Shown: one piece after another, positions 2,313-19,294 of the stretch
Layout: every line of letters starts with the position of its first letter
How positions within the stretch are numbered: position 1 is the first letter of the stretch
NCBI GenBank assembly: GCA_038257035.1
Contig: JBBSJT010000012.1
Coordinates: 1 to 31,402, forward strand
Direction: 5' to 3'
DNA: 31,402 bases
DNA from: Chlamydiia bacterium
GTDB taxonomy: Bacteria; Chlamydiota; Chlamydiia; Chlamydiales; Parachlamydiaceae
Notes under the pieces: model-generated
What the model saw: the letters and a program-made list of their open reading frames with translations, nothing else
Told to the model about the DNA's origin: nothing
The model's database searches: none
Translations under genes and position numbers: made by a program

Positions 2313-2690
2313 TTTTTTTAACGCGAGGGTCGCGAAGAAGTATTATGCCGTTAGGGTGGCTTTTTTTTACCGCGAAGACCGCGAAGAAGCGCAAGCTTCG
2401 CTGCGGGAAGAAACGCGAAGGAGCGCGCTTACGCGCGAAACAAAAGGCATTCCAAAAACTATAAAATAAGCCCCTTATTTAAAATTGTTTTCGACAAAAC
2501 AATTTTACTAATCATCCCCTTTGCATATTGCAAAAGGGAATTTTTAAATCTTTCTTGCTGTTTTCTTACCGCGCGACAGCGCGCCTCTTCGCGCTTCTTC
2601 CCGCAGCGAAGCTTGCGCTTCTTCGCGGTCTTCGCGGTAAAAAAAGCCAATCTAACGGTATAATACTTCTTCGCTCTTTGTTGTAAAAAA
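2313..2690. repeat. Long inverted repeat (arms about 105 bp) around a spacer with three small hairpins; MITE/REPIN-like element
   Basis: 2332-2437 is a near-perfect reverse complement of 2570-2674. The arms are GC-rich in an AT-rich context and contain CGCGAAG-AC-CGCGAAG after a T-tract. Spacer hairpins lie at 2464-2480, 2481-2506 and 2516-2537. Confidence 0.9.
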
Positions 2691-2726
2691 TTAATATTTG
2701 CACCCCTTGAGTCTTAAATTTTTTTC

Positions 2727-2756
2727 TTGATTAATATAGAACACTTAAGCTATGAT
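2727..2756 (+). promoter_or_regulatory. Putative sigma66/sigma70 promoter for the DUF2709 operon
   Basis: TTGATT-N18-TATGAT, about 30 nt upstream of the start codon. Confidence 0.4.
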
Positions 2757-2788
2757 TAATTATTAATAAATATTTTTTGAGGTTCCCC

Positions 2789-3511
2789 ATGGTGAAAACA
2801 ACGATCAGTGAAGAAATGAGAAAAACACTGAACCAATTCTTGAACGAAAACCAGCAGGCTGAATTAATCAATACCTATTTTTGTTTTATAGAAAATAAAT
2901 TCAATTTACAGCCGGTCTTGTTTCCAAGAGATAAAATCATCTTTCAGAGTTCTGAAGACGCCATTAAACATTTGGAAAAAAGCGATAAACTCTGGCATGA
3001 AACTGAAATAAAAATCGGCTTTAGCCATGAAAGCGTTAATGATAAAACTAAGAAAATTTATATCTGCCCATTTACAGGTAAAGTTTTTGGTGACAACACT
3101 CATCCAAATCCTCAAGATGCTATTTACGACTGGGTTTCTAAATGTCCTGAAAATCAAGAACGCATGGGCGGTCTTCGTGTTAAACGATTTTTTGTTTCAG
3201 AAGATGCGGAAGTCATCAAGAGTTTCATTGCAAAAAATAAACCAAAAGAAGCAATTACAAAAGTTGTTTATTCATCAGTATTAAGCGGTAAATTGTTTAA
3301 CAGTAAAATGGCAGTGATTGATGATTTCAAAAAGAATTATCTAAAAAAATTATCGCTTGCTGAAGTTCAAAATCAGAATAAGTTTCAAATTGAAGAAGAT
3401 TTCTTGGCATTCATACAAAAGCAGTTAGTTGAAGATAAAGTAGCCTCTTTTGTTGAAGCTATCGCTGAAATACCGGAGTTTGCTCCTTTTGTTGAGCAAT
3501 GGCTTGAATAA
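2789..3511 (+). CDS. Conserved chlamydial protein (DUF2709-like)
   Basis: Motif 'KKIYICPFTGKVFGDNTHPNPQDAIYDWVSKCPEN' and position next to tsaE. ATG at 2789 with a GAGG RBS is preferred over TTG at 2777. Confidence 0.8.
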   Translation: MVKTTISEEMRKTLNQFLNENQQAELINTYFCFIENKFNLQPVLFPRDKIIFQSSEDAIKHLEKSDKLWHETEIKIGFSHESVNDKTKKIYICPFTGKVFGDNTHPNPQDAIYDWVSKCPENQERMGGLRVKRFFVSEDAEVIKSFIAKNKPKEAITKVVYSSVLSGKLFNSKMAVIDDFKKNYLKKLSLAEVQNQNKFQIEEDFLAFIQKQLVEDKVASFVEAIAEIPEFAPFVEQWLE

Positions 3512-3523
3512 TTTGTACCTATT

Positions 3524-16299: not shown

Positions 16300-16314
16300 C
16301 CAAAAAATCCTTTG

Positions 16315-17403
16315 TTAGGGTTGACGCATCTCAACGTAAGTGGTTGGTGCAGCAACTTTTGCCCCATGGCTTTCAATGACCTTATAAATTTTTAATAAAA
16401 TTTCCTGTCTTAACTCATAGTAAGTAATAACCGGTAATTTTTTAATATAGGCTATAACTAAAACATCCAAGGAATAGGTTGCAAAAGTATTTATGTAAAC
16501 GGCATTTCTTTGACTTTGGTCTACTTGGATTTCTTCGCTTAACATTTTTTTTATGTCGTCAATTATTGGCTTGATTAAGGGCATGTCTTCGTAACGAAGA
16601 CTAAAGGTCTCTTTAATTTGTCGATGTGTCATACGTGAGGGGGTAATCACCACGATTTTTGAAAATATGGAATTTGGAATATAGACCGGTCGTTTATCAA
16701 GCGTTCTAACAAGTGTCATGTACCAGCCAATATCTTCTACATGTCCTTCAATGTTTTTTTCGGGTAAATGAATTTGATCCCCAACAAAAAAAGGCTGGGT
16801 CATATAGAGCATGCCGCCGGCAAAAAAGTTAGAGATGATTTCCTGCGAGGCAAATGCTAAAGCTAAGCCCCCGATCCCTCCAAAGGCAATCAATGTTGTC
16901 AAACTGCTGTTGGTTGCATCAAGAAGCATGAAAAAAGCGGCAATAAGGAAAAGAATGGTACCGGCTTTGTTGATCACATCAAGCTTTGCAGGCTCCATGC
17001 TAATTTCTTGGTTTTTACTTTTTCTGACAAGAATTTTTATAAGATTTTTTTTCCAACGGAGTAAAAACCAGACGAAAGCAAAAATAGCACCTATTGTAAG
17101 TACAAGATGAATATCACTAATAGGTTTGACTTCAAAAAAATGGTGTCCAACCAAATCGATGGTATGAACGATTGCAAAAAAAATGGCGTAATAATTTAAA
17201 GGAACAAATAAGGCACGAACAAAACTTTCGTGCCAATATTTTTTATTTTTTTGAAATCTTTCGCTTAATTTTTTTAAAATCCAACGCGCAAGAAAAATAA
17301 AAATCAGAACAAAAAGAATAAGGGCAAGCACTTCATTAAAAAACCCTTGATTTCCATCAAGTGCAGAAATAGCAAAGCGACAGCATTGTTCAAGTTTATC
17401 CAA
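16315..17403 (-). CDS. mscS: Small-conductance mechanosensitive channel
   Basis: 'GGIGGLALAFASQEIISNFFAG', 'PFFVGDQI', 'GHVEDIGWYMT', 'IPNS'. Overlaps the gltX stop. Confidence 0.9.
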   Translation of the reverse strand: MDKLEQCCRFAISALDGNQGFFNEVLALILFVLIFIFLARWILKKLSERFQKNKKYWHESFVRALFVPLNYYAIFFAIVHTIDLVGHHFFEVKPISDIHLVLTIGAIFAFVWFLLRWKKNLIKILVRKSKNQEISMEPAKLDVINKAGTILFLIAAFFMLLDATNSSLTTLIAFGGIGGLALAFASQEIISNFFAGGMLYMTQPFFVGDQIHLPEKNIEGHVEDIGWYMTLVRTLDKRPVYIPNSIFSKIVVITPSRMTHRQIKETFSLRYEDMPLIKPIIDDIKKMLSEEIQVDQSQRNAVYINTFATYSLDVLVIAYIKKLPVITYYELRQEILLKIYKVIESHGAKVAAPTTYVEMRQP

Positions 17404-18928
17404 TTTTTACTTCCCTTGCATTATCTGCAACAAAGTAAGCTTTGCAATCTTTTTTATCCCAATCCTTTTTTAAAGCATCTAATTTTTTCTTTGAAATGCC
17501 TCCTAAAAATTCGATGGAATTTAAAAGCCTTGCACGTGTGCGATCTTTTCCTAAAATTTCTGCAGAGTCAAAAAGGGGCGGCCCTTGAAGTTTACCCATT
17601 AAGCTTGTAAATAGTGCAGGCATAATGATTTTTTTATGGTTGATCCCAAAAATTTCTGCAATATCGCGGGAAGCTTGATTGACACCCGAACTTGTCCAAT
17701 TTTCATTGCTGTCCATATGCCAGATCATTGCCTGTAAAATCATGGCAATTTGTTCAGGATTCATCCCTTTGATAGCAAAAAGTTCTTTTGTATATTTTAG
17801 GTTGTTGATGAAAAAGAAATCACAAAGGTCCATAAAATCGCCAAAAGTTTTTATGCGAGAATGGCAAAGAGGCATTAGCCTTTGCATGTACTCATCGCTA
17901 AAATTCCACTGACGTAAACGATTCCAAAGTTCATTTTCAGGAATATTTTTAATTAAATATTGCTGATTGATCCAGTCAAGTTTTTGAACATCAAAAATGG
18001 CTCCGGAAACCCCAATGCGGGTAGCATCAAATTCTTTGACGATATCTTCAAACGAATAAATTTCGCGATCACCCGGCATGGAATAGCCCATGAGTGTCAA
18101 AAAGTTAATGAAAGCTTCAGGAAGGTAGCCTGAATCCCTATAAAAGAAAATCGATGTTGGATTTTTGCGTTTGGAAAGTTTTTTTCCTTCTTTTCCTAAA
18201 AGTAGAGGCATATGCATAAATACAGGGGGAGTCCAGCCAAAAGCTTCATAAAGGTACATATGCTTTGGTGTGGAGCTCATCCATTCATCACCGCGTATGA
18301 CATGGGTGATTTCCATTGTATGGTCATCAACGATGTTTGCCAAATGATAAGTTGGAAATTGATCGGACTTTAAAAGAATTTGATCGTCGACATCAGCCCA
18401 TGGGGAAGTAATGCGGCCTTTAACGGCATCATGATAAACGCATTCTCCGGTGAGTGGCATTTTTAAGCGAATTACATAGCTTAAGCCCTGATCTTCTTTT
18501 TCCTTAATTTCCTGCTCGCTCAAATTGCGACAACGGCGATCGTATCCTTGACGATTATTAAGCTTGGACTGCACTTCGCGCATTTCAGTTAAATCTTTTT
18601 CGGTACAAAAACATTTATAGGCTTTACCTTTATTGAGAAGGTCGTAGGCATGCTTTTTATATAAATCAAAACGTTCCGATTGTCTATAAGGACCAAATGG
18701 GCCGCCAATATCCGGACCTTCGTCCCACTCGATATTGCACCATTTTAAAGATTTGTAAATGTTTTGTTCATATTCCGGTCGGCTTCTTGATTGATCGGTG
18801 TCCTCGATACGAAGAATAAATTTGCCTTTATTATGGCGGGCAAAGATCATGTTGAATAAAGCCATGTAGGCTGTGCCGACATGGGGATCACCTGTCGGGG
18901 ATGGAGCAATGCGGACGCGAACTGTCAT
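17396..18928 (-). CDS. gltX: Glutamyl-tRNA synthetase
   Basis: RVRIAPSPTGDPHVG (HIGH), LRIEDTD, HVIRGDEW, KLSKR (KMSKS). Confidence 0.98.
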   Translation of the reverse strand: MTVRVRIAPSPTGDPHVGTAYMALFNMIFARHNKGKFILRIEDTDQSRSRPEYEQNIYKSLKWCNIEWDEGPDIGGPFGPYRQSERFDLYKKHAYDLLNKGKAYKCFCTEKDLTEMREVQSKLNNRQGYDRRCRNLSEQEIKEKEDQGLSYVIRLKMPLTGECVYHDAVKGRITSPWADVDDQILLKSDQFPTYHLANIVDDHTMEITHVIRGDEWMSSTPKHMYLYEAFGWTPPVFMHMPLLLGKEGKKLSKRKNPTSIFFYRDSGYLPEAFINFLTLMGYSMPGDREIYSFEDIVKEFDATRIGVSGAIFDVQKLDWINQQYLIKNIPENELWNRLRQWNFSDEYMQRLMPLCHSRIKTFGDFMDLCDFFFINNLKYTKELFAIKGMNPEQIAMILQAMIWHMDSNENWTSSGVNQASRDIAEIFGINHKKIIMPALFTSLMGKLQGPPLFDSAEILGKDRTRARLLNSIEFLGGISKKKLDALKKDWDKKDCKAYFVADNAREVKIG

Positions 18929-19012
18929 TTTAGAAACCTTTTTTTATCATTTAATGAGTTGATTCTACATCATTTTTGCATTCTTTGCAATAAAGAGCAT
19001 TCCTTAATCCCA

Positions 19013-19294
19013 CGTTTTTTTCTAACACAGAGACCACAGAGAAAAAAGAGAGAGAAACTAAGAATTCAAAAAATTTACAATTTGTACGTTTCTGATTTTT
19101 TTATCAGTGAGTCAGTGAGAAAGACATGAGGACAGTGAGGGACACTGTATTCCTAAAGTATTACTATAAAGTTGCATTAGCCTCTCACTGACCTCATGTC
19201 TTTCTCACTGACTCACTGGTAAAAAAATATTATAGGTAATAGTATAACCTTTCTCTCTCTTTTTTTCTCTGTGATCTCAGTGTTAAAAAAAACG
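19013..19294. repeat. Nested inverted-repeat elements: outer CACAGAG family, inner CAGTGAG family (copy 2)
   Basis: Outer arms 19013-19057 and 19250-19294; inner arms 19095-19139 and 19184-19228. The inner right arm differs from 6992-7036 at 2 of 45 positions. Confidence 0.9.

Follow-up and report, generated by a model that had tools for sequence, protein, structure and literature searches.

Five palindromic repeat elements (E1 to E5 below) lie at three intergenic loci in a 31,402-nt stretch of DNA from a Chlamydiia bacterium (GenBank assembly GCA_038257035.1, contig JBBSJT010000012.1, positions 1 to 31,402 of the forward strand; the whole of this stretch is what is meant here by the window). 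Two of the loci are nested pairs. The repeats are dispersed and non-coding, some sit inside others, and their arms carry the decay pattern of copies from a master. We give slightly better than even credence to the reading that E1-E5 are non-autonomous transposable elements, almost fully palindromic and resembling MITEs (transposable elements of the miniature inverted-repeat kind), with a putative mobiliser acting in trans; transposition would then be the mechanism by which they spread. That reading draws on whole-element dispersal, master-copy decay, nesting with an age order, non-coding intergenic location, and TA in 10 of 10 arms. The elements are the following, with the arm pairs found by a repeat search and their identities.

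E1, 2313..2690, outer element: left arm 2313-2360 (T7, AA, CGCGAGG-GT-CGCGAAG-AAG..., with the pair CGCGAGG-GT-CGCGAAG at 2322-2337), right arm 2646-2690 (tip decayed, ending in A6); about 93 nt without its insert; arm pair 2332-2367/2639-2674 (36 nt, 92%).
E2, 2361..2645, inner element, exactly at the apex of E1: 285 nt, with arms of about 76 nt that read T8-AC-CGCGAAG-AC-CGCGAAG-AAG... (pair at 2371-2386, third CGCGAAG at 2414-2420); arm pair 2362-2437/2570-2645 (76 nt, 93%).
E3, 6928..7035: 108 nt; left arm T6-AC-CAGTGAG-G-CAGTGAG-A5-CATGAGG-T-CAGTGAG (pair at 6936-6950, third copy at 6964-6970), a 19-nt centre, the mirrored arm, then A7; arm pair 6928-6971/6991-7034 (44 nt, 91%).
E4, 19015..19292, outer element: left arm T7-CTAA-CACAGAG-AC-CACAGAG-A6-GAGAGAGAAA (pair at 19026-19041), right arm CACTGAG-AT-CACAGAG, ending in A8; about 146 nt without its insert; arm pair 19016-19047/19261-19292 (32 nt, 91%), and another inverted repeat of 100% identity.
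E5, 19096..19227, inside the central region of E4: 132 nt, of the CAGTGAG type, with CAGTGAG-T-CAGTGAG from 19105; arm pair 19095-19139/19184-19228 (45 nt, 96%).

Dispersal, decay and nesting

Read inward from either end, an arm consists of six to eight T residues, an A, one more base (three in the left arm of E4), a heptamer, one or two bases and the identical heptamer, which gives a heptamer period of 8-9 nt. Purine-rich sequence comes after the pair, and E2, E3 and E5, unlike E1 and E4, have another heptamer copy 13-27 nt beyond it; the opposite arm is the mirror image, closing with six to eight A. An A stands directly after the T-run in all ten arms, so that TA adjoins each repeat core, and the ends are A+T-rich. 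A preliminary description of this DNA had counted three such elements, with heptamers said to differ between elements and to match between the two arms of each. Its heptamer coordinates are all correct on direct reading, each pair being preceded by T6-T8 and 2-4 nt and mirrored in an arm that ends in A6-A8, and the inverted-repeat layout is real. The count becomes five once the two nested pairs are resolved, and the match between arms is imperfect in the outer elements: the left arm of E1 has CGCGAGG and CGCGAAG opposite a decayed right arm, and E4 has CACAGAG twice on the left, CACTGAG and CACAGAG on the right.

The layout greatly exceeds chance. Its defining motif (at least five T, 0-5 nt, an exact heptamer repeated after 0-3 nt, counted on both strands) occurs at 11 loci in the window, as against a mean of 0.52 (sd 0.74, maximum 3) in 300 dinucleotide-preserving shuffles; two of these loci are AT-rich matches in coding regions (15218, 20111) and two others (6950, 19041) are reverse readings of the same arms. 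Loci with at least two inverted heptamer copies within 350 nt number six in the window and zero in 300 of 300 shuffles. Six inverted-repeat pairs open with a T-run on the 5' side and close with an A-run on the 3' side; one of them is a cross-pairing of the nested elements at 2313 and 2361 and one a separate element (13551-13748, to be described below); the window has no inverted repeats of the terminator type, with the A-run first.

E1-E5 contain only short stop-to-stop reading frames. For one of these, an 84-aa frame across E1 and E2, four word-sharing candidates were found among predicted proteins, none of them significant.

Dispersal is seen in the CAGTGAG type. E3 and the reverse complement of E5 can be aligned over their whole length, both borders of the centre included, with one internal indel of about 23 nt, although the two elements lie 12 kb apart in opposite orientations between unrelated flanks. 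Over the first 45 nt, the two arms of E3 are 88% identical to each other and yet 93% and 95% identical to the E5 arm E5R; the stem of E3 has three clustered mismatches, all of them uncompensated. This pattern fits independent decay of copies from one source, or master copy, and does not fit arms that selection or conversion has kept paired.

In both nested pairs the arms of the inner element are more alike than those of the outer one: 97% for E2 versus 73% for E1, and 93% for E5 versus 86% for E4, over the first 45 nt. The repeat-search identities point in the same direction (93% for E2 versus 86-92% for E1; 96% for E5 versus 91% for E4). Younger elements entering older ones would give this age order in two of two pairs.

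The sequence types are less distinct than the three different families of the preliminary description. The E4 heptamers CACAGAG and CACTGAG are only one or two substitutions away from CAGTGAG, and in the CACAGAG and the CAGTGAG types alike the second heptamer is followed by an A-run and by sequence rich in GAG; E3, E4 and E5 are probably relatives that have diverged. The CGCGAAG elements stand further off, their arms being 57-71% identical to those of the other elements. By sequence, E1-E5 fall into two or more sub-families that are related to each other, a CASWGAG type and a CGCGAAG type.

The same comparisons bear on a scheme that does away with transposition altogether, in which a short seed is duplicated in tandem and the palindrome then grows in place, layer by layer, through template switches of the kind known as quasipalindrome correction. 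Such growth would make all the heptamer copies within an element alike, in tandem and across the arms, as they are, and would stack layers with the same or similar heptamers, as in E1/E2 and E4/E5; T-runs and A-runs are, besides, prone to slippage. What local growth cannot produce is the whole-length homology of E3 and E5 at unrelated sites 12 kb apart, and a second phylum has this heptamer and this layout too, as described below. The outer layers look older, contrary to outward growth, although growth from the centre would give that order. We consider in-place growth very unlikely.

Folding, ends and possible modes of movement

As RNA, E3 and E5 each form one long hairpin (-65.6 kcal/mol, z -11.4, and -76.9 kcal/mol, z -15, respectively), and the nested pairs into still more stable structures (E4 with E5, -135.4 kcal/mol, z -18; E1 with E2, -222.9 kcal/mol, z -25). 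Single arms, in contrast, fold as DNA no better than their shuffles (z -0.5, -1.5, -2.7, -2.3 and -1.0 for five arms), and are therefore plain inverted repeats, that is, true terminal inverted repeats (TIRs), rather than paired hairpins of the repetitive extragenic palindromic (REP) type. Affiliation with REP/REPIN sequences was accordingly rejected: the single arms are not stem-loops and, by reading, have neither a GTAG nor a CGTC tag, which bears out the earlier remark that they lack the GTAG-plus-hairpin structure of REPs. An intrinsic, bidirectional terminator was also rejected because either strand reads T-run, hairpin, A-run, the hairpin being followed by the A-run and not by a T-run. 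In the 132-nt centre of E2 stand two small hairpins; one looks to the eye like a terminator for the upstream gene and is absent from the sites listed by a terminator scan.

Might the structures themselves be what is kept? Stabilisers of mRNA 3' ends, RNase III sites or protein-binding palindromes could be retained by the host, their mobility being irrelevant or long past. The fold stability is extreme (z -11 to -25), the three loci lie between co-directional genes and begin 12, 44 and 12 nt beyond the stop of the preceding gene, the two alphaproteobacterial copies discussed below begin at or over a stop codon, and A-run-first palindromes are missing from the window. Selection for structure is harder to reconcile with the uncompensated mismatches of E3 and the decayed tips of E1, and the hairpin-then-A-run order on both strands removes the intrinsic terminator from the list of candidate functions. 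Transcripts of the upstream gene may moreover stop before the right arms of E1 and E2 because of the terminator-like hairpin in the centre. No Rfam family reaches its gathering threshold for the elements; the best scores, 43-51 bits against thresholds of 86-249, are for miRNA precursor models, and any long hairpin yields sub-threshold look-alikes of that kind. Host retention leaves the dispersal of one sequence to unrelated sites unexplained. As the whole explanation it seems to us quite unlikely.

The MITE-like reading that we prefer would work as follows. Each end would be a long TIR that opens with a T-run and an A, followed by the heptamer pair and, some 20-40 bp inside, one more copy or pair, the tandem heptamers being putative binding sub-sites of a cognate transposase. 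If they are such sub-sites, one layout with different heptamers would be accounted for by transposases that are related but no longer share their specificity, and the layout would be conserved across sub-families of unlike sequence. Copies would be inserted by an enzyme encoded elsewhere in the genome, settling in intergenic DNA just 3' of stop codons and, more than once, at the heart of older palindromes of the same sort, with decay setting in afterwards. Effects on the host, as hairpins at mRNA 3' ends or as RNase III sites, would be secondary if there are any.

Bacterial MITEs, in the general terms of PMC2229807, are small (typically under 200 bp) and non-coding, with TIRs, TA at both termini and A+T-rich ends. 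E1-E5 conform in coding nothing and, apart from the longer E2, in size; they have TIRs (arms of 32-76 nt, 91-96% complementary), and each of the 10 arms, at either terminus, has the 5'-TA-3' and an A+T-rich end. They may accordingly work like such MITEs as Correia/NEMIS of Neisseria, RUP of Streptococcus pneumoniae and the palindromic elements of Rickettsia, and the preliminary description's wish to see in them an undescribed system went too far, since their features fit the generic definition given there (PMC2229807). Its proposal of a non-autonomous mobile family holds up better: the elements are dispersed, non-coding and nested, and the CAGTGAG type is found at whole length at two unrelated sites.

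Correia/NEMIS and RUP are alike with E1-E5 in being small, non-coding and intergenic, with TIRs, TA termini and long stem-loops, and RUP is thought to be moved in trans into TA by IS630-Spn1 (both points from PMC2229807). The elements described here differ in being almost wholly palindromic and in having TIRs that open with T6-8 and tandem heptamers. Tc1-type TIRs start with CAGT right after the TA, and the CAGTGAG arms nearly do. In the IS630/Tc1-mariner group, insertion is into TA with a 2-bp duplication, and the transposase (of ISY100, for example) binds inside the TIRs, according to PMC2170065. TA adjoins each repeat core here as well, and an IS630/Tc1-mariner-like cut-and-paste into TA would by this analogy be the most likely chemistry, although that family is not characterised by long T- and A-runs about its TA, and TA is missing from the copies in Alphaproteobacteria.

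The Rickettsia palindromic elements (105-146 bp, several sequence families, mobiliser unidentified, some with TA ends, as PMC2229807 relates) are likewise palindromic repeats of an obligate intracellular bacterium in several sequence families. The likeness is one of description only, and they often lie in frame within genes, unlike E1-E5, which are all intergenic. REP/REPIN sequences and bacterial interspersed mosaic elements (BIMEs), associated with RAYT transposases, share with E1-E5 an intergenic and palindromic character, nearness to gene 3' ends and the coexistence of several families in one genome. They differ in being short hairpins, 20-40-bp palindromes tagged at one end with GTAG or CGTC (PMC3733652), and no RAYT gene lies in the window.

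Eukaryotic foldback (FB) transposons have long inverted arms of short tandem sub-repeats, variable centres and 9-bp duplications, but are much longer, and they resemble E1-E5 in layout only. The nesting at palindrome centres is comparable with YPAL/RU-2 of Yersinia, whose insertion targets span or adjoin dyad symmetry; YPAL differs in having no TA ends, in not being A+T-rich and in making 3-26-bp duplications (again from PMC2229807).

The nesting position leads to an alternative mode of movement. E2 sits at the precise apex of E1. A further element of 198 nt at 13551..13748, with inverted arms bounded by T5 and A7 but of another type (a CCGGTGG hairpin, no tandem heptamer), sits in the loop of an outer hairpin at 13522-13774, between direct copies of GTCC; it is possibly related to E1-E5. 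These two positions together suggest insertion aimed at palindrome centres. The elements might, then, be recognised as hairpins and travel in single-stranded form, moved by an enzyme that reads structure (HUH/Y1, of the IS200/IS605-RAYT type, or similar) and that makes no target duplication and prefers the apex of a hairpin or cruciform. No consistent target duplication is seen at the T- and A-runs; the inner element lies in the central part of the outer palindrome in three of three nested cases and exactly at the apex in two of them (E2 in E1; 13551-13748 in 13522-13774); the whole element folds as one long hairpin; and a layout kept while the sequence varies is what one expects if shape outweighs sequence. 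The single arms, on the other hand, have no sub-terminal hairpins (z -0.5 to -2.7) and, by reading, no GTAG or CGTC tag, the direct GTCC at the 13551 element looks like a 4-bp duplication, and the decay of the E3 arms is uncompensated. Neither a Y1/HUH gene nor a RAYT gene was found by Pfam among the 24 open reading frames (ORFs) of the window. Single-strand movement strikes us as unlikely.

Besides the palindrome-centre positions, several observations weigh against the MITE-like reading. For the adjoining TA to be a target duplication, every target must have read T(n)A(n); this would demand T6-8/A6-8 targets everywhere, the exact centres of E1 and E4 included, and the free T/A sites in the window are only weaker ones: T6A5 (10231), T7A4 (17269) and T5A8 (23792). 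Outside the runs there is no consistent flanking duplication (GC is possible for E2 and CG for E4; there is none for E1, E3 or E5). The true ends are themselves uncertain and may lie outside the T- and A-runs, because E3 and E5 remain alike on one side for some 7 nt outside the A-run (TCAAAAA at 7036-7042, TCAGAAA at 19089-19095). The age order comes from two pairs, and the differences between E4 and E5 are small. Both nested pairs are like in like (CGCGAAG in CGCGAAG, CAGTGAG in CACAGAG), which random insertion does not predict; 'binding sites' explains only loosely why all the heptamer copies within one element are identical; and all the material, from 31 kb, is one sub-family in two copies and another as a single nested pair. 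The alphaproteobacterial copies have a T-run and CA, without TA, and the Pfam scan of the 24 ORFs found no transposase.

Counterparts in Alphaproteobacteria

A collection of genome contigs (596 Gb, scanned with 10-kb flanks; the four matches of the window itself did not come up, so the host genome is not part of it) was searched with the pattern T5-NN-CAGTGAG-N-CAGTGAG. Five loci were found, compared with about four expected by chance (our own estimate, for 19 fixed bases and equal base use), and none of the five in this collection is chlamydial. Three of them (L002-L004) have no inverted partner and were taken as chance matches. The other two, L005 and L001, are real counterparts of the same build (T-run, CA, three CAGTGAG-type units, mirrored arms, A-run), from metagenome-assembled genomes (MAGs) of two different Alphaproteobacteria with 63-66% G+C:

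L005, 9949-10025: T5-CAC-CACAGAG-A-CAGTGAG-G-CAGTGAG, a 12-nt centre, three mirrored units, A6.
L001, about 1514-1640: T5-CA-CAGTGAG-A-CAGTGAG-G-CAATGAG and, some 100 nt further, a mirrored arm that has decayed.

The L005 element folds as RNA with z -6.6 and has CACAGAG and CAGTGAG units side by side, which further blurs the line between these two types. Both elements begin at or over the stop codon of the upstream gene, an aminotransferase in L005 and an amidohydrolase in L001. In L005 the aminotransferase ORF passes through the T-run and ends at a TGA in the first CAGTGAG unit (10010-10012), the element thus supplying its last codons and the stop. The same contig also has a GTAG-tagged, REP-like inverted repeat at 13941-14019 (29-nt arms, 83%). 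Orthology of the two sites was considered and rejected, the upstream proteins being unrelated.

With counterparts in Alphaproteobacteria, neither the layout nor the CAGTGAG heptamer is private to this chlamydia. Recurrence at two non-orthologous sites suggests a widely spread element type, and the shared heptamer hints at horizontal spread. An undescribed and widely transferred superfamily of mobile elements, common to Chlamydiae and Alphaproteobacteria, whose enzyme reads a repeated CNNNRAG-type iteron in place of a fixed terminal sequence and integrates at the apex of a palindrome or cruciform, is a bolder proposal that we hold to be improbable; if true, it would build the layered hairpins at 2313-2690, 13522-13774 and 19015-19292. 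E1-E5 are marked by the unusual end structure (a T-run with tandem heptamers), the counterpart in another phylum, and the tendency to nest at palindrome centres. The literature that was searched has no paper with any of six motif strings and no description of small mobile repeats in environmental chlamydiae, and the 20 papers listed, of 471 on chlamydial repeats, have no mention of 'miniature inverted-repeat'; the main text of a large MITE survey (PMC11602168) mentions chlamydia zero times. In a plasmid collection searched with blastn, E3 had no match, and E1/E2 only a 29-nt chance match (E 0.4).

These searches and the gene content of the window bear, finally, on the mobiliser. It had been proposed that a GxxExxY (PD-(D/E)XK-like) nuclease whose genes such repeats flank propagates them. 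Only the TsaE ORF, out of 25 in the window, has the G..E..Y motif; no transposase, nuclease or PD-(D/E)XK family was found among 24 window ORFs by Pfam, nor a PD-(D/E)XK or transposase family among seven by NCBIfam; and next to the copies in Alphaproteobacteria lie genes for an aminotransferase, an amidohydrolase and a GFO/IDH/MocA oxidoreductase. We find this nuclease scarcely credible as the mobiliser. The broader expectation of an enzyme encoded elsewhere is, in contrast, in keeping with the gene content: the window encodes no mobilising enzyme, and any mobiliser must therefore act in trans.

Genomic setting and other repeats

The window is gene-dense, with about 36% G+C. A Pfam scan identifies a DUF2709 protein, leucine-rich-repeat proteins, ordinary housekeeping genes and the following.

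8625-10187 and 10305-11894 (+): tandem pair of TLC ATP/ADP-type nucleotide transporter genes.
25229-27976: ribonucleotide reductase large-subunit gene.
27985-29136: ribonucleotide reductase small-subunit gene.

A tandem pair of TLC-type transporter genes is typical of chlamydiae. The best named relatives of the DUF2709 protein are in a Parachlamydiaceae MAG (83%) and in Protochlamydia species (76-77%), with a further match of 99%; because of these relatives the host is taken to be an uncultured environmental chlamydia of the Parachlamydiaceae. The DUF2709 gene probably starts 12 nt further downstream than predicted, since its relatives are 240 aa long.

All five elements are intergenic and the flanking genes are co-directional in each case. 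E1 (with E2) occupies the spacer between an ABC-transporter gene, upstream, and the DUF2709 gene, beginning 12 nt after the stop codon; E3 lies between pdxT and pgk, 44 nt after the stop; and E4 (with E5), beginning 12 nt beyond the protease stop, separates an S41 protease gene from gltX. The equal gene distances of E1 and E4 (12 nt and 86 nt) were dismissed as coincidence, the flanks being unrelated and the DUF2709 start probably lying 12 nt further on.

Other repeats are present. Just upstream of the palindrome at 13522, a 21-mer (TAACAGTCAACTTTAGTTACT) is exactly duplicated in tandem (13469-13510), and the small outer hairpins of the 13522-13774 structure, together with their runs, score as convergent terminator-like sites. 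A second repeat family (11896-12103, 25005-25199 and 29580-29627) consists of inverted-repeat mosaics that open with AATTTGGAGTGC and continue as strings of small hairpins with stems differing between copies; one arm alone folds with z -5.7, and two copies begin 1 and 14 nt after stop codons. These 'GGAGTGC' mosaics look BIME/REP-like and are closer to BIMEs than E1-E5 are.

The only Rfam match in the whole window is a full-length cobalamin riboswitch at 29301-29502 (-), with 108 bits, away from the elements and upstream of the ribonucleotide reductase genes. A 149-aa protein (21515-21964, +) has two excisionase-type helix-turn-helix domains (PF12728 twice, TIGR01764); such a tandem would suit tandem direct repeats, but nothing connects this protein with the elements. 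Two adjacent ORFs, 23815-24402 and 24427-24990 (+), have no match in Pfam or NCBIfam but have, by eye, conserved stretches in common (LQILAKDINK, KADEM.FKSVQH), and are likely a tandem pair of paralogues.

What E1-E5 mean for the biology of these bacteria depends on their number and age. If they are few and old, they are ordinary intergenic debris. If there are many of them, with recent activity, they would serve to mark genome dynamics in the Parachlamydiaceae, would supply gene 3' ends with long RNA hairpins and would give a handle for finding their transposase, and, with one layout and different heptamers, would offer a natural series for following the co-divergence of a transposase and the specificities of its ends.

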